This document shows, in pieces, positions 13,447 to 35,057 of a stretch of 64,000 nucleotides of DNA. Each line of letters begins with the position of its first letter. Within the stretch, counting starts at the first letter, position 1. The notes below the pieces were generated by a model. It did not search any database. It was not told where the DNA came from and was given only the letters and a program-made list of their open reading frames with translations. A program made the position numbers and the translations under genes. The DNA comes from an uncultured Armatimonadia bacterium. GTDB lineage: Bacteria > Armatimonadota > Zipacnadia > Zipacnadales > UBA11051. Location of the stretch: NCBI GenBank assembly GCA_964549395.1, contig CAZJVY010000006.1, forward strand, positions 6,972 to 70,971, written 5' to 3'.

Positions 13447-13599
13447 TGCTGTTCTCTTGCAGATGGACAAACGCCGGCCGCTCGCGTGGCCGGCGTTTGC
13501 GTTTGGTGTTTTCCCAATCGTGGAGGCCAAGGCCGCTTGGCCGGCGAAATTGAGCCATCGCGGAAGTCCGATGTACCAGCCGCAGAAGGGGGCAGTCAC

Positions 13600-16760: not shown

Positions 16761-17234
16761 GTGGTCCGGAGATTGGCCGAACAGTACCTGCCCGAATTGC
16801 ATGTTCCGACGCTACGGCTCATGGAGGGCGTAGCACGGGCACATGCCGCCGGCTCGGGGACGATCAGCCTACTTGAGGTGATCGAGCTTTTCCAGCTCGG
16901 CCTCAGCCGAGATGACCAGGCACGGCTCCGGCGTCGAGGCGGCCTGGCCATTACGAAAACGGGCGAACGCGGGGGCACATTCGAGAGCCGTGGAGATGAG
17001 CTAAGGCTAGATGTAGGGGGCCAGGCAATCACGGTGCCTGCCGTGCTCCAGGGCACGTATTGCTCCGATGCCGATGGCACCGAATTAGTCTTTCACACCG
17101 GCGCTACGGTGTATGTCGCCAAGCTTTTGTTTATCGAGATCGGCCTGGCATCTATCCGCGCTGACAGCACGCATATAGACATCCACCTCAGGCCGGGGAT
17201 TCATCAACGCTACCGCCACGCTCCGCCGGAGTAG
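16761..17234 (+). CDS. hypothetical small protein (GTG start), uncertain
   Basis: Non-low-complexity ORF in a convergent intergenic gap. Its stop is followed directly by a terminator-like hairpin with a T4 tail. No RBS and no recognisable motif. Confidence 0.3.
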   Translation: MVRRLAEQYLPELHVPTLRLMEGVARAHAAGSGTISLLEVIELFQLGLSRDDQARLRRRGGLAITKTGERGGTFESRGDELRLDVGGQAITVPAVLQGTYCSDADGTELVFHTGATVYVAKLLFIEIGLASIRADSTHIDIHLRPGIHQRYRHAPPE

Positions 17235-17270: not shown

Positions 17271-18494
17271 CTACATCAAGTCAAGGCAGGCCATGGCTTG
17301 CTTGTTGCGGACGATCAGCTTGCCGTTCGCGATGACCGGTGCCGTCCAACTCTGGCCGCCGAGCGGCTTGATGCGTCCCAGCTCCTGATAGCCGTCGGTT
17401 GACGCATTGACCATTACGACATCTCCCTGCTTGTCGTCCATAACGATCAGCACACCGTCAACTGCGACGAGGCCACCTTTCTGGAAGCCGGCTTGCCTCC
17501 ACATCACCTTCGGATCTCTCGTGTTCAGGCAGACCAGATGCCCCGAATCGCCCGTGCCGTAGACAAAGCGGTTGTAGAACACCGGCGAGCTGAAGTGGGA
17601 GACGATGAACTTCTCGGCCCAGTACTGGTCCGGGCCCTGGGGCGTTATCTCGAATAGTGCGCAGCCGTGATTGTAGCCGCTGGTGATGAAGACGAAGTTG
17701 CCGACCACGATCGGCATCGCGGCGTTCACGTCGTAGTTCGTCTGCCAGGGAACGCTCCACAGCAGCTTGCCATGGGCCGCATCAACGCCGATGAGCGACG
17801 TTGCCATGAATGCCACGTACTGCTTGCGGTCCAATATTGTGGCCACCACCGGCGTGGAGTACCCTGAGCCGTCGCTGCCGCCGCCCGTCCAAATCGTTTC
17901 TCCCGTAGCCTTGTTGAGAACGGCCACGGCCGCATTGGAGCCGCCCGGCAGGATTACCAGCCTGTCACCGTCAACCACCGGCGACCATGCGTAGTCCCAC
18001 TTCGGCCGCTTGCCGCCGAATTCGTTCACCATGTTACGGGACCACAGCTTCGTGCCGTTCTCGGCATTCAGACAGTGGAGAAGGCCGAGACGGCTGAGGG
18101 CGTAGATGCGGCCGTCTGAGAATACCGGCGTGGAACGCGCAAACCCGTAGTTGGGCTTATCGGTATCTTGATAGCTGTATCGCCAGACCTCCTTACCATC
18201 TTCTAGATTGAAGGCCTTGACGATGTCCTGGTCCCCCGCATGGTCTGTGATGAAGACCTTACCCCCGGCCACCGACGGACCCGCGAAGCCGTCGTCACCA
18301 AGTGACACGCGCCACAGGACCTGTGGCGGCCTCTGCCCCCAGTTCTTGTTGATCCCCGTGTCCGGAGCCAGGAAGTTGGCCGTCGGCCCGCCGAATTGAG
18401 GCCAGTCGGCCCCGAGAGCATCAAGGGCCGACAGTACCAGAATGGGTATGATGACCAGCTTGACCCCGCGAATCATCGCAACACCCCTGCGCAA
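17271..18494 (-). CDS. secreted PQQ-like / BamB-like beta-propeller repeat protein
   Basis: Signal peptide then DWPQFGG. Repeated ...G-x-V(Y/F)...DG-x-L-x-A-x-D-x-x-TG-x-x-x-W blades. About 370-aa propeller. Confidence 0.7.
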   Translation of the reverse strand: MRRGVAMIRGVKLVIIPILVLSALDALGADWPQFGGPTANFLAPDTGINKNWGQRPPQVLWRVSLGDDGFAGPSVAGGKVFITDHAGDQDIVKAFNLEDGKEVWRYSYQDTDKPNYGFARSTPVFSDGRIYALSRLGLLHCLNAENGTKLWSRNMVNEFGGKRPKWDYAWSPVVDGDRLVILPGGSNAAVAVLNKATGETIWTGGGSDGSGYSTPVVATILDRKQYVAFMATSLIGVDAAHGKLLWSVPWQTNYDVNAAMPIVVGNFVFITSGYNHGCALFEITPQGPDQYWAEKFIVSHFSSPVFYNRFVYGTGDSGHLVCLNTRDPKVMWRQAGFQKGGLVAVDGVLIVMDDKQGDVVMVNASTDGYQELGRIKPLGGQSWTAPVIANGKLIVRNKQAMACLDLM

Positions 18495-18588
18495 TGATGT
18501 TCAGTTTGCCTGCTTCACCGCTGCAACCATCTTCTGCATAGACGACAGAGCGCCCCCTGATGTTGCAGGAGTTTTCACCCCTGCCGCC

Positions 18589-19794
18589 CTAACGCCCGAA
18601 GCAGTATATGGCGCCGTCGGAGCTTCCAATCACAAGCCTGCCGTCGGCAATGGCCGGACTGGCGGCGATCCTGGCGCCGGCGTTGAACTGCCAGACCTTG
18701 TGCCCCGTCGCCAGATCCAGAGCGTACAGCTTGCCGTCATCGCAGCCGAAGAAAACCCTATTGTCGGCAATTATAGGTGAGGAATCCACCTCATCACCGG
18801 CAGTGAAAACCCATCGCGTAGCGCCGGTGCCACGGTGTAACCTGAAGACCGTGTGATTGCGGGACGAGAAGATGACCGCATCGCCGGCCACTGCGGCCGA
18901 TGAATAGCTTGCGCCACGGTTCCTCGTCACCATTACTTTCCAGATGATCCTCCCATCTGCCAGCCGTACCGAGGCATACTCGCCCCCCATGCCCCCGACG
19001 AACACGCAGCCCGAGCCGTAGGCCGGTGAGGCCGCGAAGTTCGGGCCGATGTCGGCGGCGGTCCTCTGCCTGCCGGTGGCCAGGTCAATCATTCGCACCG
19101 CGCCGTCACATCCGGCGATGACTACGGTGTCGGACACAACGCAGGGGGAGCAGTGAACTTGGGCCTCGGACTTGAAGCTCCAGATCTTGCGACCCGTGGC
19201 CGCAGCCAGCTTGTACAGGTAGTTGTCGTAGGACCCGACCAGCACCGCCCCTGGGGCCGCCGTCGCAGATGACATGATCTTGTCACCTGTCCCGAACTTC
19301 CACACCAGCCGCCCGTTGCTGGCGTCAACTGCATAGAACGTTCCGCCCTCATCACCGATGTACACGCTATCTTCGGCCCGGCACGGTGAGGCACTGATCC
19401 TGTCGTCGGCTAGGAACTTCCACTTCAGCGTCCCATCTGTCACGCGCAATGCCAGCAGGGCGTTGGTCATGGTGCCCACGTAGGCGGTGTCGCCCACAAT
19501 CGCCGCAGTCGACTCGATGGACGAGCCTGTCTCATACGTCCACTGCAACCGCAGCGGGACAGACAGACTCTCCGATGTGTATCCCGACATCCGTGGCCCG
19601 CCACGGAACGAGGCCCAATCCATCGCCGGGGCAGCAATCGCCGCACCGCCGAGCGCCAGGAACAGGGCCAGCACCCCGATCTTACACACCACACGCACGC
19701 TGGACTGTCGTGTCTTCACATACAACGGCCCTACTCCTGCCTGAGAGCCGCGACGAGATTCCCTCGCACGGCGCTGTGTACGGCAATGGCGCAA
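18589..19794 (-). CDS. secreted PQQ-like / BamB-like beta-propeller repeat protein
   Basis: Signal peptide IGVLALFLALGGAAIAAPA then DWASFRGG. Repeated propeller blades. The true start is probably the GTG at 19719, because the Arg-rich N-terminus of the long ORF overlaps the upstream gene. Confidence 0.7.
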   Translation of the reverse strand: MRHCRTQRRARESRRGSQAGVGPLYVKTRQSSVRVVCKIGVLALFLALGGAAIAAPAMDWASFRGGPRMSGYTSESLSVPLRLQWTYETGSSIESTAAIVGDTAYVGTMTNALLALRVTDGTLKWKFLADDRISASPCRAEDSVYIGDEGGTFYAVDASNGRLVWKFGTGDKIMSSATAAPGAVLVGSYDNYLYKLAAATGRKIWSFKSEAQVHCSPCVVSDTVVIAGCDGAVRMIDLATGRQRTAADIGPNFAASPAYGSGCVFVGGMGGEYASVRLADGRIIWKVMVTRNRGASYSSAAVAGDAVIFSSRNHTVFRLHRGTGATRWVFTAGDEVDSSPIIADNRVFFGCDDGKLYALDLATGHKVWQFNAGARIAASPAIADGRLVIGSSDGAIYCFGR

Positions 19795-22700
19795 CTTACT
19801 AACCCGAATAGTAGTATACCCAGCAACACCCCGCTCAGAACATGCCAGTTCACGTGAGCCTGTGCCGACGCCAGGTGCGGCGCAACAGCGAGCAGTGCCA
19901 TGCCCGTACCCAGGAGCAATCCGGCCACCAGCAGGCCGCCGTTCTCCAGCAGCAGTACGCGAACCACTTTCGGGCGGTGGAAGCCCACTGCCAGCATCAG
20001 CGCCAGCTCCGACCTGCGCTCCAGAGCACTGCGCAGCAGCACGGTCACAAGGCCGGCAGTACCCAGCAACAGACCGAGGCCGCCCAGAGCCAGGAACATG
20101 GACAGATACGTGTTCTGTACCCCAATGAACTCGTTGAGTACCTCCCGTGTGGTTCGCACCCGCACTCCCATGTCTCCCAGATTCGTGCGCAGGATTGCGG
20201 CGATGTTGTCCTCACGCCCCGGCGGGACATCAAGCAGGAAGTAGCTTGGAGCACTCACCGACGGGAAGAGCGTGTGGAAACTGTCCTCGGATACCAGGAC
20301 CTCCCGCTGGAAGATGCTCCCTGGAAGCACTCCCACGAATCGCAGACTGACGGGCCTCAAGGTATCCGTCGGGATCTGATACGTCTTGCCCAGCCCCGAA
20401 TGCAGTGTCCACTGCACGCTGGCTGCGTCGCCGAAAGCCGGAATGGTGTCATCCGCTGCAGGCTGCTCCAGGAGGCTCCAGGGCTGGTCGGCGAAGCTGT
20501 CGCTCACAGTGCCCGGTGAGAAACCACCGCGTTGTATCATGGTGTGGGGGACGCCAAGGATGCGCGGGTGACTGGGGCGCGCGATGTTCAGGCAACTGAT
20601 GTCCTCTCCCTGGCTTGCCAGGAAAGACACGACCTTGACATCCGCGAAAGCCGCTTCGTCATCAGCCGAGAAGCCCAGGTTGCTCCGTCCTGCCGGCGTG
20701 CCCAGGTCGAAGGACAATGGGACCGATGAGGTGGCCTGCAGTTCGAAGCCTCCGGTGCCGGAACTCCGGTCCGTGGGGTCCATCCGCGAGAAATCGCGGG
20801 AATTGGCGGCGACGGCCACGATGACGAAGGTGGCGGCGGCGAGCAGGCCTATCACCAGCAGACTGCGGCTTGCGCTTGCCGCGGCGTTCCGTGCCGAGAA
20901 AGCCGGCAAGGAGCGGGTAGCACCCCTCAGGCGCAGTGTGCGGGACAGCAGCAGAGCGGATGCCGCCAGTGCTGCCAGCAGGAGTGCGAAGCCGATTCCG
21001 AAGAAAGCCACCTGCGGCGCGAGCACTCCCACAACCGCTAGCAGGCCCAGAGCAGGCGCTGCAGTCAATGTCAATATGAGTAGGAACACCACCCGTCTGC
21101 TGCTTGGTCGCACCACAGATACGGCCATTCCACGCCACCCGCCAAGGAGTTCCAGAACCTCCAGACGACCGAGGTGCCGTGCACTCCAAAACGTAGTGAG
21201 CAGCCCGATAACCAGACCTGAGACGGCGCCGGTAACGATGCTGCCAGCCGTCACGTGCAGCCACAGGGATGGAGCCGCACCCAGAGCCCCGCTCCACCAG
21301 CTAGTGAGGGCGTGTATGATGCCGGCCGCATACAGCAGCCCTGCCGGGACCCCGGCCGCCATCCCCAGCACGGTCAGGATTGCACCTTCGGCGAAGATTG
21401 CTCTCTTGACGAGAGCAGGGGGCACGCCGGTGGCCAACATGATCCCGACCTGTGACGCCCGCCGGTCAATTGAGAGGCGCAGCAGCATTCCCCCGAGACC
21501 GGCACCGGATAGCACCAGGAACATGCTCAGGCCCAGGAGAAGCTGGCCGAAATCCGAGGTGCCCTGTGCCGCCCTCAGCGCCAGCTTACGCACCGGACGG
21601 AAGACAAGCCCTTCAGCAGGCGGGGGCGTGCGTTTCATCAGCATCTTGGTGAACAGCTTGCCGAACTTGCCCAGTGTGGTATCCGGCGGTGGCACCATGC
21701 GGATTGAGGTCACCCAGTCGGCTTCGGATCCCTGCGGGCCGCTCTGCCACATCGCGCGTGCCGTATCGGGGCTTACAAAGCCTCTGGGAGTTGCCCTGTA
21801 CCTGTCCCAGTACTCCTCATCGCGGTCGGTGATGCGGCTGAAATCCACCGGGAATGGCGGGTCCCATTCGCCGATGCGAGCCGCATCGGTAATGCCCTCG
21901 AAGTCGGGCACCAGGGTGGGATCGGCGGCCGGCCCCGCCATCTCCACTATGCCCGTTACGGTGAGCTCCGTGTGCGCGGTCGGGTATGTGCCATCCTCCG
22001 TCGGGACCATGTATGTCAGGCGCAGGCGGTCGCCTACTGCGGCCTGGAGGTCTTCAGCCGCCCACGTATTGAGCCAGATGCCGCCCGGCTGCGGCCGCTT
22101 GCCGCTCCCGGCGCGCAATGTGAACGGCTGCAGCGGCTTCAGGCCTGCGATCATCGCATAGGCCGACTCCCTGCCACCGACTCCGTCAGCCCTGGTGATG
22201 GCCGTCGCCAGATAGACTGAAGCAGGAGTACTGCGTGCGTCGCAGCCGGCAGCCGCGCGGATTGCCGACTCGACCTGTCCTTCGGAAAGCAGGATGCCGT
22301 CGCCTACGAGTGATATGCAGTTGTGTCGAGCGTCGGGAACCAGCTTCAGTCCGAGGTCGGCGAGCGTGCGACCGCCTACTACCGCGTCAATCAGATCCCT
22401 CGCTGCTTCGGGTTGCGCCTCCGGTGCCACTGACGCGACGAGGACATTCATGGAATCTTGTTTGCCGAGGCGGTCGGCGAGCCACTGCCTGCCAATGAAT
22501 ACATTGCGCGGCGCTGCACTTTGGGCGTCCAGGCGGAAGTCACCCGCTCCTCCTGCAGGCAATATGTACTCGACCTGCACCCTCATCATCGGTGCAACGT
22601 GCTGTTTGTCGCGGCGGGCAAAGAGCGTTTCAGTTGATATCGCGCTCCGCTTGTGCACGGTCAGGAGAAGATAGTCGCCTTCGCGCAGACTGAGATCCCT

Positions 22701-23126
22701 GGCGAGGGCGGCGTTGACGGCACAGGCCCGACCGGAGAGCTCGGGCGTCTGGGGGAGATCGTAGAAGCTCCAGAAGCTGTCCTCTACGCCCCACACACTC
22801 ACATCGGGGACCGTGGCCTCCGTAGCGGGGTTGCGTGCCGCGCCGTTTGATGTGAGTAGAGCGGACAGGTTGCGAATGGACGCCGCTGCCGGTTGCGCGC
22901 GTATGTCATCCGCGAACTGCCGGCGGAGGTACCGGGGTGCCGTCATAGCATAGTCAATCCTACCGAGTCGCGCCAGAGCCGTATCGCGCAGGCTGCCACG
23001 CACCGAATCGCCGATGAGTAGCGAGCCGGTGATGACCGCAGTGGCCACACCGAGCCCGAAGACGACCACAATGCCTGTCTGCCAGTAGTACGCAAGGCTG
23101 CGGGAGATGAGGCTTCTCAGATTCAC
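19731..23126 (-). CDS. ABC transporter permease, MacB/FtsX-like with duplicated FtsX domains and large extracytoplasmic domains
   Basis: 1131 aa with multiple TM clusters. Translationally coupled to the upstream ABC ATPase gene. Confidence 0.65.
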   Translation of the reverse strand: MNLRSLISRSLAYYWQTGIVVVFGLGVATAVITGSLLIGDSVRGSLRDTALARLGRIDYAMTAPRYLRRQFADDIRAQPAAASIRNLSALLTSNGAARNPATEATVPDVSVWGVEDSFWSFYDLPQTPELSGRACAVNAALARDLSLREGDYLLLTVHKRSAISTETLFARRDKQHVAPMMRVQVEYILPAGGAGDFRLDAQSAAPRNVFIGRQWLADRLGKQDSMNVLVASVAPEAQPEAARDLIDAVVGGRTLADLGLKLVPDARHNCISLVGDGILLSEGQVESAIRAAAGCDARSTPASVYLATAITRADGVGGRESAYAMIAGLKPLQPFTLRAGSGKRPQPGGIWLNTWAAEDLQAAVGDRLRLTYMVPTEDGTYPTAHTELTVTGIVEMAGPAADPTLVPDFEGITDAARIGEWDPPFPVDFSRITDRDEEYWDRYRATPRGFVSPDTARAMWQSGPQGSEADWVTSIRMVPPPDTTLGKFGKLFTKMLMKRTPPPAEGLVFRPVRKLALRAAQGTSDFGQLLLGLSMFLVLSGAGLGGMLLRLSIDRRASQVGIMLATGVPPALVKRAIFAEGAILTVLGMAAGVPAGLLYAAGIIHALTSWWSGALGAAPSLWLHVTAGSIVTGAVSGLVIGLLTTFWSARHLGRLEVLELLGGWRGMAVSVVRPSSRRVVFLLILTLTAAPALGLLAVVGVLAPQVAFFGIGFALLLAALAASALLLSRTLRLRGATRSLPAFSARNAAASASRSLLVIGLLAAATFVIVAVAANSRDFSRMDPTDRSSGTGGFELQATSSVPLSFDLGTPAGRSNLGFSADDEAAFADVKVVSFLASQGEDISCLNIARPSHPRILGVPHTMIQRGGFSPGTVSDSFADQPWSLLEQPAADDTIPAFGDAASVQWTLHSGLGKTYQIPTDTLRPVSLRFVGVLPGSIFQREVLVSEDSFHTLFPSVSAPSYFLLDVPPGREDNIAAILRTNLGDMGVRVRTTREVLNEFIGVQNTYLSMFLALGGLGLLLGTAGLVTVLLRSALERRSELALMLAVGFHRPKVVRVLLLENGGLLVAGLLLGTGMALLAVAPHLASAQAHVNWHVLSGVLLGILLFGLVSCAIAVHSAVRGNLVAALRQE

Positions 23127-23839
23127 TGCCGTCCGACCTCTGTCTCTGCGGTATCCACGGGTGCAAGGCTGCCGTCACGCAGTTGCAGGCAGCGGCCGAA
23201 CCGCGACGCCTGCTCCAGGTTGTGGGTGACCATCAGCACTGTAACGCCCTGCTGCTCGGCCAGCTCCAGCAGCAGAGACACGACCGTCTGCCCGGTGTGG
23301 CGGTCGAGGTTGCCCGTCGGTTCATCACACAACAGCAGGTGGGCATCGTTTATCAACGCTCTGGCGACGGCAACTCTCTGGCGCTCCCCTCCCGAAAGCT
23401 GTGCGGGGAAGGCGTCTTGCCGGTCTGCAAGGCCGACGCGCTCGATCAGCCGCGTGGCCCTCGCATCGGCCTCCTTGCCTCCGGCATTCGCCAGCGTGGG
23501 CAGCAACACGTTCTCAACGGCCGTCAACTGGGGCAGCAGATGATGATCCTGGAAGACAAACCCCACTTGCGATGCGCGGAATGAAGCCAGTGCCTTGCCG
23601 TGCAGAGCGGTTACCTCGGTGTCACCGAGGCGTACCCGTCCTGATGTCGGTTTGTCCAGTGCTCCGGTAATGTTGAGTAGCGTGCTCTTGCCTGAACCTG
23701 AGGGCCCCACGACGGCCACGGTCTCACCAACACTGATCTGGCAGGAAACACCGTCCAGCACCGTGAGATCCGGCCCTCCCGCAATCGGGAACCGTTTCGT
23801 GATTTCCTGCAGAACGAGACCCTCTGCCGGACCTGTCAT
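23123..23839 (-). CDS. ABC transporter ATP-binding protein (LolD/MacB-type)
   Basis: Walker A GPSGSGKST, signature LSGGERQRVAVARAL, Walker B LLLCDEPTGNLD. Start placed at MTGPAEG (23839). Confidence 0.85.
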   Translation of the reverse strand: MTGPAEGLVLQEITKRFPIAGGPDLTVLDGVSCQISVGETVAVVGPSGSGKSTLLNITGALDKPTSGRVRLGDTEVTALHGKALASFRASQVGFVFQDHHLLPQLTAVENVLLPTLANAGGKEADARATRLIERVGLADRQDAFPAQLSGGERQRVAVARALINDAHLLLCDEPTGNLDRHTGQTVVSLLLELAEQQGVTVLMVTHNLEQASRFGRCLQLRDGSLAPVDTAETEVGRQ

Positions 23840-25407: not shown

Positions 25408-25410
25408 AGG

Positions 25411-27900: not shown

Positions 27901-29915
27901 TCGCTGGTTGCTCGGCTGCCTATGCAGTAGAGATGCTTCTCGCCCCGGATGTAGATCCTGCCGTCCACGTAGGCGGGCGTAGCGCGTATCGCCTCAGTGA
28001 TTTTGCCCGTAGAGACGGCCTTGAACTTGCGCGCGGCCTCGAAGATGTGCATGACCCCGCGCGTGTCGGCGATGTAAACATGCTCGCCCACCACGGTCGG
28101 AGACGACACCAAAGACGCCTTCAAGTCCTGCTGCCACAGCTTCTTGCCGTCCTTTGCGTCATAGCACGTAATCAGGCCGTAGCTGGCCGCCACAAACACC
28201 AGCTCACCGTTGCTGACCGGACTGGTGGTATCCGGCAGTCCCTCGCTGGCCGACCAGACTACCTCACCTTTGGTGCCCTTGCCCGGCGCCGGAGGGCGAA
28301 TGGCGAACAGGCCGGCACTCTCGCTACAGGCGAACACCAAGCCGCCCGCATAGCATGGCGTCGAAGCGATATCGCCGCTCAGACATTCGGCGCGCCAGAG
28401 CTCCTCGCCAGTGGCAGCATTGTAGGAGATGACCCAGGGGTCGGCGCTGGTGATGATCTCGTCGCGCTCGGCGGTGTTGACGACAATCGGGCTGGCCCAC
28501 GAGTTGGGGACCGGCCGCTTCGTCCGCCACACGGCCTTCCCATCGCCGGCATCGAGCGCAATCAGCGCCGACAGGCCATCTGCTGCGCTATATCCCTGAT
28601 CGAGCTGTATGATGACAATGTTGCGGTACGTCGCCAGCGAAGACGCATGACCGTACACGTTGTCCGGAGTGCCCAACGTCTTCGCCCACACCTGCTTGCC
28701 TTCCAGATCGAAAGCCGCCACGTCGCCGTTGGCGAATATCGCGAAGACTCGTTGCCCGTCGCACGCCATCGTAGGAGCGGCGAAGCCCGTATCTTCCGAG
28801 ACCTCGGGCGCCTCGTCGTTGGCACTCGCATCAATCAACACCTGGTGTTTCCAGGCCATTTCGCCCGTGTTTGCATCAATGCAGTACACGCCACGGCGCT
28901 TCTCATCGGCGCCGGTCACAAACACTTTCCCATCCCAGAAGGCGGGGGAGCTGTGGCCGGGCAGGGGTATGTCCGCCTTCCACAGCACCCCTTCGCTCTT
29001 GGCACCATCCCAGCGCGTCGGATACCCGCCCGCAGCGATGATGCCTGATGCGGACCCCCGAAATGACGGCCAGTTCCTGGCGCGTTCTTCTGCCGTCGGG
29101 TATGTCCCCTCCAGGTCCGCAGTGCCGCCGGCGGCAGGCGACTGGTCGCCCTTGGGCGGCTTATCCTTCTTCTCGGGCGCCGGCTTCTCGGCAGGTGGAC
29201 TAGGGGGCCCCGGCTCCCCGCGAGGGCCACGGGGACCCGAAATGCCTGCGGGCCCGGGAGGTCCTGGAGGACCCGGAACCGCAGCCGGCGGCGCAGCCTC
29301 GGGGGCCGGTGGTTGCTGCGTCTCTTCCTCAGGAGGCCTGGTGCCGTCGAGTGGCTTCTCACCCGTGTCGGATGCCGCCGCCAGACGTGCAGCCTTGACG
29401 TATTCCGAGGATGCATCATGCCGGGCGAGGACGGCTACAGTAAGAAGGACCCCCGCCATGACAATGCCCAGGATGGCAACCGACCGCCGTGCCAGAGCGG
29501 CCTCAACCCAGAACTCCCGAGCGCGCGAGGGCTGCGGCGCTGGGGCCTTGGCCCGGAATCGCGCAACCACGTGCAGGGATGCCAGCAACACGGCCAGACC
29601 TCCCAGCAGCAGATAGACGCCGGTGATGGCCCGTGCCCGGGTGGTGAAGTACGTGCTGCGTATGTATTCATCCAGTGCACGGATATGCTGCCTGAGCTGG
29701 TCGTTATCCGGCTGCCTGGCCAGCTCCGCCTTAAGCGCATCTATCCGCGCCGGCTGCAAGGGGTCGGCCGCCCGCCCCTGCGCCAGGTTTGCCACCAGCA
29801 AACCGAGCACCACCAGGCAGAAAACGAACGCCAGTGCCGCAGTTGCCAGCGCAGCCTGGTAGTAAAGGTTGTGGCGAGCGATTTCCTCGGCTTCCCCGAG
29901 CGGCTCTTCGCTCAT
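27897..29915 (-). CDS. membrane-anchored (3 TM) PQQ/BamB-like beta-propeller protein with collagen-like GXY linker
   Basis: Three N-terminal hydrophobic helices. GPPGPPGPAGISGPRGPRGEPGPP. NWPSFRGSASG then propeller blades. Confidence 0.65.
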   Translation of the reverse strand: MSEEPLGEAEEIARHNLYYQAALATAALAFVFCLVVLGLLVANLAQGRAADPLQPARIDALKAELARQPDNDQLRQHIRALDEYIRSTYFTTRARAITGVYLLLGGLAVLLASLHVVARFRAKAPAPQPSRAREFWVEAALARRSVAILGIVMAGVLLTVAVLARHDASSEYVKAARLAAASDTGEKPLDGTRPPEEETQQPPAPEAAPPAAVPGPPGPPGPAGISGPRGPRGEPGPPSPPAEKPAPEKKDKPPKGDQSPAAGGTADLEGTYPTAEERARNWPSFRGSASGIIAAGGYPTRWDGAKSEGVLWKADIPLPGHSSPAFWDGKVFVTGADEKRRGVYCIDANTGEMAWKHQVLIDASANDEAPEVSEDTGFAAPTMACDGQRVFAIFANGDVAAFDLEGKQVWAKTLGTPDNVYGHASSLATYRNIVIIQLDQGYSAADGLSALIALDAGDGKAVWRTKRPVPNSWASPIVVNTAERDEIITSADPWVISYNAATGEELWRAECLSGDIASTPCYAGGLVFACSESAGLFAIRPPAPGKGTKGEVVWSASEGLPDTTSPVSNGELVFVAASYGLITCYDAKDGKKLWQQDLKASLVSSPTVVGEHVYIADTRGVMHIFEAARKFKAVSTGKITEAIRATPAYVDGRIYIRGEKHLYCIGSRATSE
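29205..29276 (-). repeat. collagen-like Gly-X-Y triplet repeat (8 triplets) within CDS 27897-29915
   Basis: GPP GPP GPA GIS GPR GPR GEP GPP read directly from the translation (aa 214-237). Confidence 0.8.
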
Positions 29916-31207
29916 GGCGCCTCCTCCGTCAATCCCACGTCGGCCTCTTGACTCCCCGCACGCTCAACGGGACACGACGCATAACAGCGGGCGCAGGCAA
30001 CGCACGTCGCGGGATCGGCCTGGTACTCATCACGACGACGGCGGATTGATGCCCCAACCGTCTTCAGCCCGAGCACCAGCCCAATCCAGGCTCCCAGTAG
30101 CCAGGAGCCGGTGTTGAAACTGCCTCTGATTGCAGCAGCCTCCCGGTAGGCATCCATCGGCGGCGTCGCCTGAATGTGAAATGCCTCGGTGGCCTCCGTC
30201 TTGCCCTCCACAAGCCCCTGTTCCTCCAGCCACAGCCGGTCCGCCAGGCGCACGGCCGGATGAACCTGTGCCAGCAGGGGACTGCCCAGTCGCACCAGCC
30301 CCGCGCCCGCTGCAATGAGCACCGGCAGCAGTAGCAGTGCCGTCGCCAGGCGTGCCTTTGCCGGTTTTCGGTTCACGCTCTCCCCTTGCGGAGTGGGCGG
30401 CCTGATGGCTCCATAGGGGCACGCATCAGCGCACAGATGGCAGTTCACGCACTCAGCCGGGCTGATACTGGCTCGCCAGCGGGCAAGCGGCGACACGATC
30501 TGCAGCAGCGCTCCATAGGGGCACGCATACCGGCAGTACGGCCGCCCCACGACCGTGGCCAACAGCAGCACCGCGACCCCGACGATCAGCATTGCAGCGC
30601 TGCCGCCTAGCCGGAAGAACAGCACGAACGGGTCAAACTGGCAGATGATGAACGCACTGCCCGTCGCAGCGAAGAGCACCGCCGCACCCAGGTAGAGATA
30701 GGGCACGGTAGCCAGCGCGCTATCCAGCCAGCTCGGTACTCTCACAGGCCGGAAGAGCACTACTTCCTGGGCGGCCCCCAGCGGGCACACGGCGGCGCAG
30801 AACACCCGCCCGAAGAAGAGCGCGAACAGCAATGGCAAGAGAAAGAACACGCCCGCCGCCAGGGGCAGCACGTAATCGGCGTTCGAGAGCGCGAGAGACA
30901 CGTTCTGGATCGCGCCTATCGGGCATACGCAGCCGCGGCGGTAGAAGCCGAAGTACAACAGCGAAAACAGCACCAGCACGACCAGTTCGCGCCGCGAACG
31001 TCTTTTCAGAGACAGATAGGCCGCCAGCGCCAGCGCCACGAACAGCACCGCGACGTCCATGTATGACAGGATATCGGGGCGTGGCGACGGCGTGGTGACA
31101 TCGGGAAACCAGTAGCCCTTGCTGAATTCCGGCGGCGGGAATCTCTCAATGGCAAAAACCGCCACCGGAAGACAAAGCAGCAACAGCACCTGGCAGGCAG
31201 CTCTCAA
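29912..31207 (-). CDS. NapH/MauN-like integral-membrane polyferredoxin (4Fe-4S binding)
   Basis: Several TM helices with CX3CP motifs (FCAAVCP, YCRYACP) and two C-terminal CxxCxxCxxxCP ferredoxin motifs. Confidence 0.7.
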   Translation of the reverse strand: MRAACQVLLLLCLPVAVFAIERFPPPEFSKGYWFPDVTTPSPRPDILSYMDVAVLFVALALAAYLSLKRRSRRELVVLVLFSLLYFGFYRRGCVCPIGAIQNVSLALSNADYVLPLAAGVFFLLPLLFALFFGRVFCAAVCPLGAAQEVVLFRPVRVPSWLDSALATVPYLYLGAAVLFAATGSAFIICQFDPFVLFFRLGGSAAMLIVGVAVLLLATVVGRPYCRYACPYGALLQIVSPLARWRASISPAECVNCHLCADACPYGAIRPPTPQGESVNRKPAKARLATALLLLPVLIAAGAGLVRLGSPLLAQVHPAVRLADRLWLEEQGLVEGKTEATEAFHIQATPPMDAYREAAAIRGSFNTGSWLLGAWIGLVLGLKTVGASIRRRRDEYQADPATCVACARCYASCPVERAGSQEADVGLTEEAP

Positions 31208-31222
31208 TATCCGTCTCCCGGT

Positions 31223-31798
31223 CTATTCCTTGGTTCGCAGCAGATACGGCTTGTTTGCCGGCACGCGAACGATGGCATCCGATGGGCATACGTTCGCGAT
31301 GGCGCACTGATTGCAGTTGATGCAGCGGTCATGCCGAATCTGCAGGATGAGCGAGCCGTTCCCGTAATCCCGGCACCCCTTCACGCAGGCTCCGCAGCCG
31401 ATGCACTTGGACTCGTCTATCACGTACTGGTAATAGGGATCCTCAATGAAGCTGCGGCTGATCGCATTGGTGGGGCATCGCTGGTTCTCGGCGCCTTCGG
31501 TGTCATCCGCGCGCTTCTCGGCTAGATAGCCGAAGCAGAGGTCGCAGTACCCGCACATTGCGTACTCGTGCACGCACTTGACTGCCGAGGGGTTCAACAC
31601 ACATGCCGTGGCGCACTTCCCGCATTGCGTGCATTTGGCGGGGTCCACCTGCCACACGTACTCATTGGCGTTCCCCCGAGACACCAGCGCCCCGAGCAAC
31701 CCACCGGTGAACAGCAGACCGGCGCCTCGCGCGGCCTGGGTCAGGAACTCGCGCCGGGTCATCGTCTCGCGCTCGTCTGTGGAAGGCTCTAGGGACAT
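31223..31798 (-). CDS. Tat-exported NapG/MauM-like ferredoxin with four [4Fe-4S] motifs
   Basis: Twin-arginine motif TRREFL. CTQCGKCATAC, CGYCDLC...CP, CIGCGACVKGC, CINCNQCAIANVCP. Confidence 0.7.
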   Translation of the reverse strand: MSLEPSTDERETMTRREFLTQAARGAGLLFTGGLLGALVSRGNANEYVWQVDPAKCTQCGKCATACVLNPSAVKCVHEYAMCGYCDLCFGYLAEKRADDTEGAENQRCPTNAISRSFIEDPYYQYVIDESKCIGCGACVKGCRDYGNGSLILQIRHDRCINCNQCAIANVCPSDAIVRVPANKPYLLRTKE

Positions 31799-32019
31799 TG
31801 CTCTCCTTCGCTTGCGCCAGCCCGTTTCGCCGATAGTGCCTGCGGCAGATGGCAGGCCTCAAAAGCGCCACAACCCCGGCAGATGCCCTGGTTGATGCAT
31901 TCTTCGCTGTTGCGGGTCATCAGCGCGCCGACGCCGCCGCCCAACAGCAACGCAACGCCATACCTGCCGATATCGCGCAGGAATTCACGCCTGGTCATTC
32001 TGCCCGGCTTCTCCAGCAT
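31789..32019 (-). CDS. tiny Tat-signal Cys-rich periplasmic protein (mature part about 40 aa, 6 Cys)
   Basis: MTRREFL Tat motif then CINQGICRGCGAFEACH...EQCP. Overlaps the next gene start by 10 nt. Confidence 0.45.
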   Translation of the reverse strand: MLEKPGRMTRREFLRDIGRYGVALLLGGGVGALMTRNSEECINQGICRGCGAFEACHLPQALSAKRAGASEGEQCP

Positions 32020-32045
32020 CGCGACCTTTCTCCTGGGAACGCCTG

Positions 32046-33062
32046 CTACTTTCGGGCAAACACCTTCACGGTACCCGCCGCCGGGTCCATCACGTAAATG
32101 CGCCCCTCACCGTCCACGGCCAGATCCAGGCCCGCCGCTTTCGGCGAGAAATCGTCCGGCACGGCGACTACACTCTCGAGCGTGCCGTCGCGGTTATGTA
32201 CCTTCACGCGCGGCAGGCCCTTCTCGCTGGTGACTATCCTGCCGTCCGCCAAAACCGCGATATCAGTGGGGTTACAGCAGCCGCAGAAGCCGTCAATCTC
32301 CTGTGATGGCTTGCCCCATGTTGACTTGAGAGTCCCATCCGCCGCGTATGTCCCGACCGCGTGGCGGCCGGGATTGTTGACGATGAGCGTCTGCTCCGGC
32401 CCCAAGGCCACATCGAGATGCGGACTGGGCAGCAGCAGGCCCGGCACACCCTTGCCCTCATCCTTCTCGCCGATCCTGCCCAGCAAGTCGCCGGACTTGC
32501 TGTAGTGCAATACGACGCGGTTTCCGGCATCCCCGACCCAGACATCCTCACCTGAGACAACCAGGCTGGTCAGGTAGGCGTTCTCACCCGGCAGTGTCCA
32601 GCCGGCCTGCACATTGCCCTTGGTGTCGTATGCGACTATCCCCGTGCGCAGGCCGATCCACTCAGTCTCGTCTTCGCCCAGCGCAATTGCGTACGGCGGC
32701 TCAGGCAGTTGACGCTGATAGTTGCAGTGGCCCTGTGCATCGAACACGCGGAGGCCGCTGTCGCCGACCGCATAGAGACTTGCCGCCTCACCGAATGTCA
32801 CCGCGATCCCGCGCGGCTCGTCAAAGCCGGTCGCGATTTGGCTGACTTGCTGGTACTTGACGAGCGCCGGGTCAACCTGCCGCAGTGCGCTCATGTCATC
32901 ATTCGACTGCCGCACGGCGCTTTCGGTATGAGAGCGGATTTCGGAGCGGCTGAGTTCGTAGCAGCCACTGACGGCCACTAGCAGCGATAGAAGAGCGACA
33001 CGCCCAGGCTTCAGGGCCGGGCCGGACTTACTGGCGAGTTGTGAGCCGGTACGCCTGCTCAT
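32046..33062 (-). CDS. NHL-repeat (6-bladed beta-propeller) lipoprotein
   Basis: Lipobox LLVAVSGC. Repeated DG-x-x-Y/V-x-D blades with a CGCCNPTD motif. Confidence 0.5.
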   Translation of the reverse strand: MSRRTGSQLASKSGPALKPGRVALLSLLVAVSGCYELSRSEIRSHTESAVRQSNDDMSALRQVDPALVKYQQVSQIATGFDEPRGIAVTFGEAASLYAVGDSGLRVFDAQGHCNYQRQLPEPPYAIALGEDETEWIGLRTGIVAYDTKGNVQAGWTLPGENAYLTSLVVSGEDVWVGDAGNRVVLHYSKSGDLLGRIGEKDEGKGVPGLLLPSPHLDVALGPEQTLIVNNPGRHAVGTYAADGTLKSTWGKPSQEIDGFCGCCNPTDIAVLADGRIVTSEKGLPRVKVHNRDGTLESVVAVPDDFSPKAAGLDLAVDGEGRIYVMDPAAGTVKVFARK

Positions 33063-33063
33063 A

Positions 33064-34638
33064 TCAGGTTCCCGTCACGTCAACACAGACCATGCTGGTC
33101 AAATCGCGGGCCAGCAACCGGCCGCCAACGATGACCAGCGGGCCCCATGGCTCCGACCCGCTGAGTATCTTCGCCCTCCCGAGCTCCTTATACCCGCCCG
33201 GGCCGGCCTCCACCATCACCAGCTCGCCGGCGTCGCTCATCACGTAGATCTTGCCGTCGGCGATGATGTACGGATTGATGCCGAAACGAGCCGTGCCGCT
33301 TCGCCAGATCGTCTTGCCGCTCAGGTCAATGCAGGAGAGTTCCTTGCTGGGTATGACCCCGTAGATGTGGTCATTGTACAGGATCGGCGTTTGCTGGTGC
33401 GAGCCGAACACTTCAGCGGAAAGCCGCTGCGCGATGGATGCATTGGAGCCGCTGATGCGGATGAATGCCGCCCCCGCGCCGTAGCCGCCGCAGACGAAGA
33501 TGCGGCCGTCGCCGATCGGTACGGCTGACGGGACGTTGGCCGTCTTGACGGTCCACTCGCTGGTCTCCCATGCTAGCGAGCCGTCGCCTGCCGAGACCCC
33601 CACAACGCCGCCGCTGGCCGGATAGACGTACGTCTTCTTGCCGCCAAGGCTGATCGGTACAATCGAGGAATGGGTCATCTGCCAGCCGCGCGGATTGGGC
33701 GTTCGCCAGACTTCCTTGCCCGTCGCCAGGTCCACAGCGACCATCAGCGCGCTGCCGCCCGGCGCGAGAATGACCCGATTGCCGTCAATCAGCGGACACT
33801 GCCCGGCATACCAGGAGGGCACCTGGGCGCCGTACTGGCTGACCATGTCAATCTTCCACTGCACGCTGCCGCCGGCCGTGTCGCAGCACATCACGTGGCA
33901 TTTCGGCCCCAGGCTTACAACATACTTGCCGGTAACCGCAGGGACTGTGCGCGACATGCCATGGTTGCGCTTAACCTCAACCGGATACGACTGCGACCAG
34001 ATCTGTTTGCCGTCAGACAGGGACAGGCAGAGCAGTTCGTCGGCCCCGTTGGCGTGGTCGTAGTCCAGCAGATACACGCGTCCATCGAGCACCGCTGGTG
34101 CCGCATATCCCTCACCAAGCTGGCGCGACCACAGCTTGCGCGGCCGGCCTGCACCCCAGCTATCGGCCAGCGAGATGCGTTCTTTGCTTATGTTGTCGAA
34201 ATCGGCGCCCCTGAAGCGCAGCCAGGCACCAGTAGGAGCGCCGGCACCGGCGGAAGGCGTCGAACCTGCCGTCCCCGCCGCAGATGCCGCTGTGGTTGCC
34301 GCCGCACCCGCACCGGACACAGCAGGCCCCGACGTGGCGGTAGCGGGACCGGCAGCAGGTTGTGATGATGTCGCCTGTCCCGTGACTGCTGCGCGGTCTG
34401 GCAGCCGAGGCAGGACATCGCTTACCTGCGGGGCAGTCCTCAGCCACAACACAACGGCCGCTATCCCGATTGCGGCGACAACCGCCGGTATGCCGACCGT
34501 CACCAACAGATTCGCGCGTCTCCGCCCCTTCTTGCGCCGCACAGGCGCCAGGGATGCCGTATCTGCGGTCCGGCGGCTGCTGCCAAGACGTACAGATGAA
34601 GGTGTGCGACGACTCAACGACCCCGGCCGCTTCTCCAT
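33064..34638 (-). CDS. single-TM-anchored PQQ/BamB-like beta-propeller protein with Ala/Thr/Ser-rich linker
   Basis: TM helix LLVTVGIPAVVAAIGIAAVVLWL. Low-complexity linker. AWLRFRGADFDN then propeller blades. Confidence 0.65.
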   Translation of the reverse strand: MEKRPGSLSRRTPSSVRLGSSRRTADTASLAPVRRKKGRRRANLLVTVGIPAVVAAIGIAAVVLWLRTAPQVSDVLPRLPDRAAVTGQATSSQPAAGPATATSGPAVSGAGAAATTAASAAGTAGSTPSAGAGAPTGAWLRFRGADFDNISKERISLADSWGAGRPRKLWSRQLGEGYAAPAVLDGRVYLLDYDHANGADELLCLSLSDGKQIWSQSYPVEVKRNHGMSRTVPAVTGKYVVSLGPKCHVMCCDTAGGSVQWKIDMVSQYGAQVPSWYAGQCPLIDGNRVILAPGGSALMVAVDLATGKEVWRTPNPRGWQMTHSSIVPISLGGKKTYVYPASGGVVGVSAGDGSLAWETSEWTVKTANVPSAVPIGDGRIFVCGGYGAGAAFIRISGSNASIAQRLSAEVFGSHQQTPILYNDHIYGVIPSKELSCIDLSGKTIWRSGTARFGINPYIIADGKIYVMSDAGELVMVEAGPGGYKELGRAKILSGSEPWGPLVIVGGRLLARDLTSMVCVDVTGT

Positions 34639-34884
34639 TTGTGCCCCACAATGCAGGGCAGCCCCGTTGGCTGACTGCCCTCGAGTTGGCTACTGTGTAC
34701 AGATATGCTATGCAATGTCTGCCATGGTGTCAAGCTCAAGGCACCTTGGCGGCCCTTCAGTCGGAAGCTACCCTCCCCTCTTAGGCAAGAAGGTGCGCCA
34801 GATAGGTCTCTAAGGGGGGCCCACTGGGTCAAATGACGCCCCATTTACCGCCCAGGTTCACACCCTTAACGGCTCAAGACGGAT

Positions 34885-34902
34885 ATGTTTCACGTGAAAC
34901 AT
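34885..34902. promoter_or_regulatory. perfect 18-bp palindrome ATGTTTCACGTGAAACAT in a divergent intergenic region (candidate operator)
   Basis: The left half is the exact reverse complement of the right half. Sits in an AT-richer stretch and is followed by a TTGAC-like hexamer. Confidence 0.4.
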
Positions 34903-35057
34903 TTATTGACCGAACCGCTGCAAGCAGCCTATCAACCGCTCACAGAGGAAAGGCAGGCCCCAAAGGCGAAGAAATGCGCGAACGTAAGCGACGGAACACG
35001 GGGCGGTGGCGAAGTCTGAAGAATGCCTCAACGGATCGTTCGGAGAGCGAAGAACCC

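Follow-up and report, generated by a model that had tools for sequence, protein, structure and literature searches.

We describe a gene system on a 64,000-nucleotide stretch of contig CAZJVY010000006.1 (assembly GCA_964549395.1, positions 6,972 to 70,971) from an uncultured Armatimonadia bacterium; this whole stretch is called the window. The system brings together a flavin/iron-sulfur enzyme of the Bfu family, a NapH-like membrane polyferredoxin, small proteins exported by the twin-arginine translocation (Tat) pathway, beta-propeller proteins, an ATP-binding cassette (ABC) transporter and terpenoid genes. Its genes are most usefully divided into three modules: R (g1-g8), T (d1-d5 and the GT4 glycosyltransferase gene d6) and X (g9-g12). 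Genes g1-g12 lie on the minus strand at window positions 17271-34638, and d1-d6 run divergently on the plus strand at 34833-43603. Our proposal, whose chances we judge to fall just short of even, is that an NADH-fed transmembrane iron-sulfur conduit serves periplasmic propellers that would act on an exported terpenoid glycolipid. It builds on observed domain identities, Cys motifs, Tat signals, gene linkage, fusions of g5 with g6, and the absence of both an NADPH domain and a classical reductase. The genes of modules R and X are listed below, with lengths in amino acids (aa) and transmembrane segments abbreviated as TM.

g1, 33064-34638, minus strand: 524 aa; N-terminal TM anchor, Ala/Ser/Thr/Pro low-complexity linker and eight-bladed PQQ_2/BamB-like propeller (Pfam PQQ_2, 102 bits)
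g2, 32046-33062, minus strand: 338 aa; long N-terminal helix and six-bladed NHL propeller facing the periplasm (Pfam NHL)
g3, 31789-32019, minus strand: 76 aa; Tat-signal mini-protein, Cx5Cx2Cx5C-LPxALS
g4, 31223-31798, minus strand: 191 aa; Tat-exported polyferredoxin (several Fer4 Pfam families)
g5, 29912-31207, minus strand: 431 aa; membrane polyferredoxin of the NapH/NosR superfamily (Fer4_5, 59.5 bits)
g6, 27897-29915, minus strand: 672 aa; PQQ_2 propeller anchored by three TM helices (PQQ_2, 122.7 bits)
g7, 25411-27900, minus strand: 829 aa; BfuC-BfuB fusion (Pfam 2Fe-2S_thioredx, Complex1_51K, NADH_4Fe-4S and two Fer4)
g8, 23836-25407, minus strand: 523 aa; minimal BfuA/NfnA-like subunit (Pfam Fer2_4, Fer4_20 and a flavin adenine dinucleotide (FAD) Rossmann domain)
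g9, 23123-23839 (longest open reading frame to 23890), minus strand: ABC ATPase of the LolD/MacB/YbbA type (ABC_tran, 122 bits)
g10, 19731-23126, minus strand: duplicated FtsX permease of 1131 aa; resembles MacB/YbbP (type VII ABC) and has large domains outside the cytoplasm
g11, 18589-19719 (longest open reading frame to 19794), minus strand: secreted propeller with signal peptide (Beta-prop_ACSF4, 214 bits; PQQ_2, 173 bits)
g12, 17271-18476 (longest open reading frame to 18494), minus strand: secreted propeller with signal peptide (PQQ_2, 127.7 bits)
g1-d1 divergent intergenic region, 34639-34832: one sigma-70-like site, TTGACA-17-TAGCAT, at 34733-34705 on the minus strand

The twelve minus-strand open reading frames (ORFs) fill 99% of 17271-34638, and G+C is even over the region at 0.62-0.65. 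An earlier annotation made by a model from the letters and ORF translations, here called the sequence-only reading, had seen a co-directional array with stop/start overlaps that forms one unit. All genes are indeed co-directional and tightly packed. Four-nucleotide ATGA/GTGA overlaps join g5/g6, g6/g7, g8/g9 and g9/g10, where the ATG at 23839 is taken as the likely start of g9, and g3 overlaps g4 by 10 nt. At 33064/33062, where the same reading had placed an overlap between g1 and g2, there is instead a gap of 1 nt. The remaining gaps measure 3, 11, 15, 26 and 112 nt, the last of them preceding g12; likely starts of g11 and g12 are the GTG at 19719 and the ATG at 18476, respectively. Single-unit organization is thus upheld by co-directionality and by the translationally coupled junctions with 4-nt and 10-nt overlaps. 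The scan for promoters and terminators found no more sigma-70-like sites in 34639-34832 than in shuffled sequence and no terminator signal above chance. The site in the intergenic region is therefore weak evidence, and operon structure rests on packing and conservation. Pfam and NCBIfam profile searches confirmed the domain make-up named by the sequence-only reading. Its borders, 17271-34638, were too narrow, as the terpenoid/radical S-adenosylmethionine (SAM) module and the GT4 gene at 34833-43603 belong to the same system. No NCBIfam model reached its cut-off for any periplasmic or membrane component, and every relative of g2 and g5 in the databases carries either no name or a generic one.

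The cytoplasmic end of the system is formed by g7 and g8. Judged by its alignments, g7 fuses BfuC to BfuB and retains every cofactor site known from the bifurcating core of this family (PMC9304861, PMC11829005). It comprises a NuoE-type [2Fe-2S] domain (residues 56-198, 165 bits), a thioredoxin-like [2Fe-2S] domain, a NuoF-type flavin mononucleotide (FMN)/NADH site and a C-terminal 2x[4Fe-4S] region. The motifs GAGFPTG, CNGDEGDPGAF and CGKCTPCR are visible in the sequence itself. Alignments with NfnB, StnC and HydB span the whole of residues 224-829, at 621-706 bits. The best PDB matches were NfnB (9BOV, 706 bits; 9N5U, 697 bits), NiFe-HydB (7T2R, 673 bits), StnC (8OH5, 672 bits) and HydB (621 bits), against about 380 bits for the non-bifurcating FdsB/Nqo1. 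The models of the housekeeping NuoF were failed (TIGR01959, 464 versus 559 bits; NF008436, 359 versus 749 bits), and a Pfam scan of the window ORFs found no nuo membrane-arm genes in the 64 kb.

The second subunit, g8, aligns to NfnA residues 5-302 and 423-671, with nothing matching NfnA 303-422 or 672-1178. The first of these deletions corresponds to the NADPH-binding Rossmann subdomain (NfnA 303-422; 251-403 in Thermotoga maritima NfnB) and the second to the C-terminal pterin-less Fdh-like domain of about 500 residues. In 50 of 50 g8 homologues (median length 532 aa) a single FAD-type GxGPxG motif is found around position 198, and no second conserved dinucleotide motif occurs in the 50. The N-terminal [2Fe-2S] cluster, the Fer4_20 dicluster and the NuoG-type [4Fe-4S] clusters on the path to BfuB are kept, as in other BfuA proteins. 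Thus, the assignment of g7/g8 to the Stn/Nfn/HydBC type holds within the Bfu family (best PDB matches NfnB, 706 bits, and NfnA, 352 bits). Of the proposed StnA-type NuoG-N/GltD fusion using NAD(P)H, the NfnA/StnA relationship stands and the NAD(P)H site falls, as NfnA 303-422 is deleted and only one GxGxxG is present in 50/50. Since g8 is devoid of the NAD(P)H subdomain, the sole pyridine-nucleotide site of the system is the NuoF-type FMN site of g7; the lack of the Rossmann subdomain and the Fdh-like domain rules out an NADPH-oxidising transhydrogenase of known kind.

Variants of this enzyme were seen at single loci. The planctomycetotal locus L086 encodes a g8 variant of 345 aa (3199-4236) from which the FAD domain is wholly absent, and a 23S_rRNA_IVP gene sits between its g7 and g8. 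In L003, from an unclassified metagenome-assembled genome (MAG) labelled '[bacterium]' (GCA_021372615.1), a FAD_oxidored gene (PF12831, 314 bits) at 13527-14867 stands between g6 and g7 and may encode an added flavoprotein partner. Long "g8" ORFs in L016 and L035 were considered as g7-g8 fusions and rejected, being without in-frame g7 domains.

Genes g3, g4 and g5 encode the iron-sulfur chain. In g4, the Tat motif reads TRREFL, and RRxF[L] is present in 72 of 72 homologues; the family has 16 invariant Cys, so four [4Fe-4S] clusters are possible. The tiny Tat Cys-rich protein of the sequence-only reading is g3, with a conserved Tat motif (RR in 30 of 31 homologues) and the Cx5Cx2Cx5C motif, the four Cys of which are 100% conserved; it has no Pfam or NCBIfam match. 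Hydropathy and AlphaFold2 (AF2) helices give g5 a signal or TM helix followed by about seven TM helices. Its two Fer4_5 repeats contain the invariant C137-x3-C141-P and C225-x3-C229-P, which align with the CX3CP motifs of Escherichia coli NapH. Two CxxCxxCxxxCP motifs are separated by an inserted hairpin of two TM helices. A further triad, C93, C95 and C189 (GCxCP and CQ[FY]DP), is family-specific and invariant, with no counterpart in E. coli NapH. According to hydropathy, the positive-inside rule, AF2 helices and the NapH alignment, the CX3CP and cluster motifs are predicted to be cytoplasmic and the triad to lie on the periplasmic side. The role of the triad is puzzling, because assembly of an iron-sulfur site on the periplasmic face would be difficult for a protein inserted by the Sec route.

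The pair had been likened to NapGH, and the traits behind this comparison are present: g4 has the Tat signal and four [4Fe-4S] Cys motifs of NapG, and g5 the two CX3CP motifs at cytoplasmic TM ends and the C-terminal [4Fe-4S] motifs of NapH. Orthology was not found. g4 scores 23 bits against NapG model NF007012 (cut-off 269) and 28 bits by BLASTP against E. coli NapG; g5 scores 47.6 bits against the NapH/MauN model TIGR02163 (cut-off 213) and 40 bits against NF007013 (cut-off 234). In an hhalign comparison the g5 family profile matched E. coli NapH at 95% probability over core residues 122-265 only. Because the cut-offs are failed by a wide margin, g4 and g5 are not NapGH orthologues, and the likeness is, on these profile scores, one of superfamily kinship. 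Searches of the PDB by sequence and by fold found no relative of g5.

A g5 profile search over 1.84 billion cluster representatives (50%-identity clusters) returned 580 matches at E<=1e-30. Among the best 150 of these, ten are g5-g6 fusions of about 1000 aa (P0375, P0376, P0380, P0383, P0393, P0407, P0434, P0449, P0461 and P0491), with Fer4_5 and PQQ_2 in one chain. In P0376, for instance, the C-terminal portion matches residues 31-666 of g6 with 37% identity (E 5e-122). Fusion in about ten lineages argues that g5 and g6 work as one unit, and it agrees with the predicted topology, in which the g5 C-terminus and the g6 N-terminus are both cytoplasmic. Long "g5" ORFs in L065 and L067, considered as g4-g5 fusions, turned out to be out-of-frame extensions with an Arg-rich N-terminus devoid of Fer4 domains.

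Besides g6, the locus encodes the propellers g1, g2, g11 and g12. g1, g6, g11 and g12 are paralogues in one locus that share a common WPxFRG start motif. Their scores against the BamB model TIGR03300 (43.5, 97.7, 153.6 and 86.8 bits) are below the cut-off of 285, and those against the PQQ-dependent dehydrogenase models TIGR03075/TIGR03074 (21-75 bits) are far from the cut-off of 480. The highest conservation of any propeller of the system is found in g1, where C204, H226, C436 and C518 are invariant and C251, C281 and H323 near-invariant (44-59 homologues). It lies upstream of g5 in 56 of the 60 loci with room for it and is a candidate catalytic or interaction subunit. Profile and fold searches with g1 and g2 returned generic BamB and NHL scaffolds only. 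g2 carries an invariant GFCGCCNP motif with a vicinal Cys pair, C262/C263. Described before as an NHL lipoprotein, it keeps the NHL propeller, but a lipobox is not general (7 of 64 homologues by a simple regular expression). Similarly, the collagen-like linker ascribed to the 3-TM propeller g6 is present in the window copy, but GXY runs occur in just 8 of 72 homologues. g12 follows g8 in many Planctomycetota loci, often in duplicate, and g11 travels with GT4-g9-g10 in Planctomycetota and stands directly after g10 in L094, L138 and L154.

Some propeller genes and insertions were observed elsewhere in related loci. A weak g6-like propeller match (25-28% identity) lies between d3 and d4 in L096, L102, L105 and L115, and in L003 a PQQ_2 gene lies between the cyclase and polyprenyl synthase genes. 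In the Sedimentisphaerales loci L012 (1285-3833) and L028 (6604-9132), g2 and g4 are separated by genes for Sde182-type nucleoside-hydrolase-like/cellulose-binding proteins.

Conservation was assessed in a scan with one genome per species; related loci are designated by L numbers. g5 relatives were found in at least 589 species, and the detailed comparison, by tblastn with all window proteins, covered the best 80 loci. The closest relatives of g5 are labelled Armatimonadota, which displaces the Planctomycetes-Verrucomicrobia-Chlamydiae (PVC) setting assumed by the sequence-only reading. Taxon labels among the 80 loci were Planctomycetota (53), Armatimonadota (15), Bacillota-labelled MAGs (2), unclassified (4) and one each of Poribacteria, Aegiribacteria, KSB1, Aminicenantes, Calditrichota and Verrucomicrobiota. 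Among cultured strains, the system is carried by Chthonomonas calidirosea, Rhodopirellula sp. SM50 and Novipirellula herctigrandis. The core g1-g2-(g3)-g4-g5-g6-g7-g8 is present in nearly every locus that is long enough, across at least eight phyla. Among loci with room, g6 follows g5 in 65 of 68, g7 comes next in 55 of 62 and then g8 in 48 of 57. Recurrence of the same order in 80 loci and at least eight phyla places the arrangement beyond chance, and the conserved genomic context that had been named as a check on the unit was thereby found.

Gene order in Armatimonadota is as in the window. Planctomycetota show g11-GT4-g9-g10-g1...g8-g12, KSB1, Aminicenantes and Calditrichota g4...g8-g11-GT4-g9-g10, and L078 g4-g5-g6-g1-g11-g1-g2. 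Membership thus stays constant through at least five gene orders, with the modules seen as R-X, R-T-X, T-X, X-R or singly. In L007, L034 and L038 the system was found in MAGs labelled Brocadiaceae, Eubacteriales and Bacillota; L007 is at 65%, an Armatimonadota-level identity, and these contigs may be misbinned or mislabelled.

Neither the window nor the 80 related loci contain a nap, nos, mau, molybdopterin, cytochrome c or other terminal reductase gene. All-versus-all clustering of the unassigned neighbourhood ORFs of the 80 loci yielded no recurrent family beyond the window's own set, so the lack of any classical terminal enzyme, reductase or oxidase, holds generally and is not a border effect. 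The sequence-only reading had likewise recognised no terminal enzyme; napAB genes lying just outside its borders, which would have made the pair canonical NapGH, were found neither around the locus nor in the 80 neighbourhoods. Genes after g6 in L069, L080 and L076 were inspected as a hidden terminal reductase or alternative donor and rejected, as they encode the unrelated Tex-like, catalase, GH123 and sigma factor proteins. Linkage that persists from phylum to phylum makes it reasonable to picture an architecture that conducts electrons between cytoplasm and periplasm. With this linkage and no terminal enzyme in 80 loci, the core idea of a conduit between the cytoplasmic flavin/iron-sulfur module and the periplasm survives.

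Divergently from g1 run the genes of module T.

d1, 34833-35912, plus strand: 359 aa; ferredoxin-like with a 2x[4Fe-4S] domain (Fer4 families)
d2, 35913-37427, plus strand: 504 aa; radical SAM enzyme with B12-binding domain, CGLGCDFC (Radical_SAM and a weak B12-binding match)
d3, 37424-39307, plus strand: class II terpene cyclase-like alpha/alpha toroid (SQHop_cyclase_N and _C); GTGA start overlap
d4, 39539-41299, plus strand: 586 aa; DUF116 (108.6 bits) fused to polyprenyl_synt (121 bits)
d5, 41296-42219, plus strand: 307 aa; prenyltransferase/terpene-cyclase-type alpha/alpha toroid (Prenyltrans, 60.8 bits)
d6, 42311-43603, plus strand: GT4 glycosyltransferase (Glycos_transf_1, 90.8 bits)

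d3 has the DxDD acid motif (DADD at residue 400 of the long ORF) and scores 117.7 bits against the squalene-hopene cyclase (SHC) model TIGR01507, the cut-off of which is 431. It is probably a member of the 'SHC-like' clade, as judged from its sequence. Papers on planctomycetal SHC-like cyclases leave their product open and note a non-squalene gene context (Santana-Molina et al. 2020, PMC7306690; PMC12414744). In d4 the first DDxxD is present and the second motif is degenerate (NDLSD). d2 resembles TIGR04013 (74 bits, cut-off 251) and has 999 relatives, the best 120 of them at 55-70% identity. d1 always lies immediately upstream of d2; the pair is kept in L001-L003, L083-L086, L088 and most metagenome loci. 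A second radical SAM protein with a B12-binding domain is encoded at 336-1820 on the minus strand (494 aa; B12-binding 62 bits, Radical_SAM 67.5 bits) and is positionally unrelated to d2.

The divergent R/terpenoid arrangement recurs in L001-L003, L009-L011, L026, L063, L064, L079, L099, L105 and L134. In L094 a single strand carries g4-g5-g6-g7-g8-d1-d2-d3-d4-d5-g9-g10-g11. L086 runs g7, short g8, GT4, PQQ, d1-d5, ABC and FtsX, L088 runs PQQ, d1-d5, ABC, FtsX and propeller, and L083 carries g12-d1-d2-d4. d1-d2 come directly after g8 in L092 and L094, and close downstream of it in L086. d5 is kept after d4 in L084-L086, L088 and L094, among others. A GT4 gene lies between g11 and g9 in Planctomycetota (L013, L016, L018, L023, L024, L043, L044, L051, L055, L059-L061, L070, L073 and L086). 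In a view centred on d2, 50 metagenome loci have the terpenoid module, 31 of these with enough flank; 14 of the 31 adjoin R, X or GT4 genes, with ABC-FtsX directly after d5 in eight of the 14. Modules R and X thus appear, from this linkage, to be genetically tied to the making and exporting of a cyclic terpenoid lipid. In L123-L125 and L127, from bioreactor metagenomes, the 10 kb around close d2-like radical SAM genes (56% identity) contain no further gene of the system.

The export genes g9 and g10 are specific variants of their families as well. g9 is below the cut-offs for LolD (TIGR02211, 228 versus 308 bits) and MacB (213 versus 966 bits). g10 contains FtsX in two stretches and has a weak ADOP family match; its L001 homologue has MacB_PCD. 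It directly follows the terpenoid module in L086, L088, L094, L130, L136, L138, L139, L146, L148, L153 and L154.

In the mechanism that we propose, NADH would be oxidised at the NuoF-type FMN of cytoplasmic g7, with g8 serving as a minimal NfnA-like iron-sulfur/FAD wire. In Bfu enzymes, the C-terminal domain of NfnB is the route by which low-potential electrons reach an 8Fe ferredoxin (PMC11829005). On its cytoplasmic side, g5 presents a 2x[4Fe-4S] face that resembles a membrane-tethered ferredoxin, and g7/g8 may dock on it, so that electrons would leave the Bfu module through the ferredoxin port or the g8 chain and enter the cytoplasmic clusters of g5. They would then cross the membrane to Tat-exported g4, with its 4x[4Fe-4S] set, and to the Cys4 mini-protein g3. 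These in turn may feed a periplasmic assembly of g5-attached g6, anchored g1 and the NHL protein g2 with its vicinal Cys pair. Module T would supply a polyprenoid that is cyclised, further altered by d2, the B12-radical SAM enzyme, and probably glycosylated by GT4. In module X, the MacB/Lol-type g9-g10 would extract the lipid from the inner membrane together with soluble g11 and g12. The periplasmic redox assembly would most likely perform a reductive step on the lipid, its carrier or an acceptor during export. We infer that g7/g8 docks on g5, that electrons flow outward and are bifurcated, that the lipid is the substrate, and what chemistry takes place. A bolder version, in which a multi-phylum machine wires a Bfu enzyme through a NapH-like/propeller unit and uses low-potential electrons for reductive chemistry on a new class of glycolipid extracted by a type VII ABC transporter, is doubtful.

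Several points weigh against the proposed conduit, for which the evidence is that of sequence, motifs, linkage and fusions. About half of the loci with a terpenoid module have it on its own, and some 11% of loci are without g7/g8 beside g6 (L004, L065, L067, L069, L076, L078 and L080). The propellers have no recognisable cofactor site, their profile and fold matches being to generic BamB/NHL scaffolds only. PDB searches by sequence and fold found no NapH or NosR structure, so that the superfamily as a whole offers no structural guide to the membrane-crossing step. The FAD domain of g8, devoid of an NADPH site, is explained neither by our proposal nor by its rivals, and the BfuA of L086 is shorter still, at 345 aa. 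Neither our proposal nor the rivals as framed account for the periplasm-side Cys triad of g5. Finally, E. coli NapH is regarded as a quinol dehydrogenase, so that quinones, and not g7/g8, may be the partners of g5.

This last point leads to the alternative that survives best, although we consider it unlikely: a quinone-coupled bifurcating module in which g5 is a quinone/quinol anchor and g7/g8 oxidises NADH and splits the electrons. Its exergonic branch would run via g5 to quinone, or via g4 to a periplasmic acceptor. The endergonic branch would reduce a ferredoxin-like protein such as d1 and thereby power d2. Radical SAM and cobalamin chemistry requires low-potential electrons, and the outcome would be a Fix/EtfABCX-like source of low-potential reductant for terpenoid modification, also in aerobes. 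The homology of g5 to E. coli NapH, the complete bifurcating BfuBC architecture kept in g7 and the position of d1-d2 directly after g8 in L092 and L094, or close downstream in L086, speak for this arrangement, as does the prediction that the Bfu family includes quinone-linked, membrane-bound members (PMC9304861). It leaves unexplained, however, why a Tat four-cluster ferredoxin, g3 and three periplasm-facing propellers are the tightest partners of g5. Most Planctomycetota have d1/d2 elsewhere or none seen within 10 kb, and no quinone-binding site was identified.

Electrons might also flow inward, with the propellers as periplasmic oxidases or dehydrogenases and g4/g3 passing electrons through g5 to g7/g8, which would reduce NAD+, possibly together with ferredoxin, in a confurcating/bifurcating manner. 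We rate this reverse flow as still less likely. NapH-like proteins adjoin the PQQ alcohol dehydrogenase ExaA, itself an eight-bladed propeller, in 172 genomes, with a proposed flow from periplasmic oxidase to membrane (PMC8238504), Bfu enzymes are reversible (PMC9304861), and the invariant Cys and His of g1 suggest a site. Yet the propellers match BamB-type scaffolds best and score far below the quinoprotein dehydrogenase model TIGR03075 (21-75 versus 480 bits), neighbourhood clustering linked no cofactor-biosynthesis or cytochrome genes, and the donor would need to be strong enough for NAD+ reduction.

An iron-sulfur-driven thiol/disulfide reductase, in which g4/g3 would pass electrons to the vicinal Cys pair of g2, and perhaps also to the g5 triad and the Cys of g1, is improbable. 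Its purpose would be to keep envelope proteins or a thiol-linked substrate reduced, with the terpenoid link being indirect. Such a role would suit the invariant GFCGCCNP of g2, the conserved Cys of g1 and the periplasm-facing, invariant C93, C95 and C189 of g5, which E. coli NapH lacks. The conserved periplasmic Cys may, however, be plain structural disulfides; no thioredoxin-fold, DsbD or CcdA-like protein emerged from the neighbourhood clustering in any locus, and the linkage to ABC/FtsX, GT4 and terpenoid genes would go unaccounted for. That an Nfn-like enzyme, a NapGH-like pair, a Lol/MacB-like transporter and BamB-like propellers are merely juxtaposed, as might be argued from the occurrence of each family in unrelated contexts, from loci without g7/g8 or transporter within 10 kb and from the often solitary terpenoid module, is very improbable given a membership kept over several gene orders and at least eight phyla, the 4-nt overlaps, the g5-g6 fusions in some lineages and the failure of all components, as family-specific variants, to reach housekeeping-family cut-offs.

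Described systems resemble parts of the locus. NfnABC/StnABC (9BOV, 9N5U, 8OH5) share the full-length NfnB/StnC alignment of g7 with a fused NuoE-type BfuC, and g8 matches the NfnA N-terminal domain, the Fer4_20 dicluster, the FAD domain and the NuoG-type clusters. In contrast to these enzymes, BfuC and BfuB form one polypeptide in g7, g8 has neither the NADPH Rossmann subdomain nor the Fdh-like domain, and both are encoded beside membrane and periplasmic partners and found in aerobic lineages. A survey of the Bfu family lists 17 BfuB clades with no assigned function and predicts membrane-bound members (Nuo-Bfu, Mbh-Bfu), with no NapH-like partner mentioned (PMC9304861).

With NapGH, NosGH and MauMN the system shares the pairing of a Tat 4x[4Fe-4S] protein and a membrane partner in which two CX3CP motifs are combined with [4Fe-4S] motifs near the C-terminus. 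g5 differs from NapH in a conserved Pro-rich N-terminal periplasmic segment, in two extra TM helices followed by the invariant GCxCP, in an invariant Cys189 where NapH has Trp, and in the TM hairpin that splits its two cluster motifs. None of the 80 loci has napAB, nosZ or mau genes. A literature mention of Caldithrix NapGH was discarded as a precedent, as it concerns a true nap cluster.

NapH-like proteins have been described as modular transmembrane electron wires, including a subtype beside ExaA (Meheust et al. 2021, PMC8238504). These systems (NosR, PceC and ExaA type) likewise use a PF12801 membrane iron-sulfur wire to an extracytosolic enzyme, in one subtype an eight-bladed propeller. 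Their defining traits, an FMN-binding domain together with flavinylation by ApbE, are both missing from this locus, whereas here the input is of the Bfu type, the carrier is a Tat polyferredoxin and BamB-like propellers take the place of PQQ dehydrogenases.

g9-g10 resemble MacB, LolCDE and YbbAP in combining a LolD/MacB-like ATPase with a permease of the FtsX fold whose periplasmic domains are large. They differ in that g10 is a single duplicated chain of 1131 aa, in scores below the LolD/MacB cut-offs and in linkage to terpenoid, GT4 and propeller genes rather than to TolC, MacA or LolA/B. g1, g6, g11 and g12 belong to the eight-bladed PQQ_2 propeller fold family of BamB, but score 43-154 versus 285 bits; two of the four are anchored in the inner membrane, and one is fused to the polyferredoxin in some lineages. 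As in the SHC-like cyclases, d3 is a divergent SHC homologue with a DxDD motif that lies beside a polyprenyl synthase rather than squalene synthase genes. The papers on these cyclases treat the cyclase alone, with no link to redox, propeller or ABC genes mentioned in the portions of text searched (PMC7306690, PMC12414744). No description of the combined system was found in the full-text literature searched, in agreement with the initial view that the combination is not a described system. Its sequence relationships make it a new variation on NapH-like extracytosolic electron transfer, and there is a real possibility that it is something categorically novel.

The remainder of the window holds genes of other kinds. 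At 2703-5747 and 13486-16749 (both plus strand) lie genes for two proteins, each about 1000 aa long and with a heparinase II/III-like domain at the C-terminus, and a sulfatase is encoded at 58744-60027 (minus strand), a gene content that suggests a sulfated-polysaccharide-degrading lifestyle. Regions 5962-8732 and 10162-13446 (both plus strand) carry PilC-like (T2SSF) and PilB-like (T2SSE) genes, followed by six small ORFs, several with prepilin N_methyl/DUF1559 N-termini. Past the GT4 gene, 44939-50033 (minus strand) encodes a DegT aminotransferase, a GFO/IDH/MocA oxidoreductase, a polysaccharide deacetylase, a GT9 heptosyltransferase and a cytidylyltransferase; by neighbourhood clustering this sugar-modification block is not recurrent in related loci. 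Four ORFs have no Pfam match at E<=1e-4: 43628-44881 (minus strand, 417 aa), 50091-53768 (plus strand, 1225 aa), 62005-63981 (minus strand, 658 aa) and 16761-17234 (plus strand, 157 aa).

If the proposed conduit is real, it would be the first Bfu-type enzyme coupled to a transmembrane iron-sulfur wire, extending bifurcation chemistry to the periplasm and to aerobic lineages, and the NapH/NosR superfamily would gain a defined cytoplasmic donor. The orphan SHC-like cyclases of Planctomycetes would gain a cellular context, and their product matters for lipid-biomarker research. Under the bolder version, a new lipid pathway, and with it a potential biomarker source, would follow. The conserved block comprises about 18-20 genes in at least 589 species, and its cultured carriers make genetics and lipidomics feasible.

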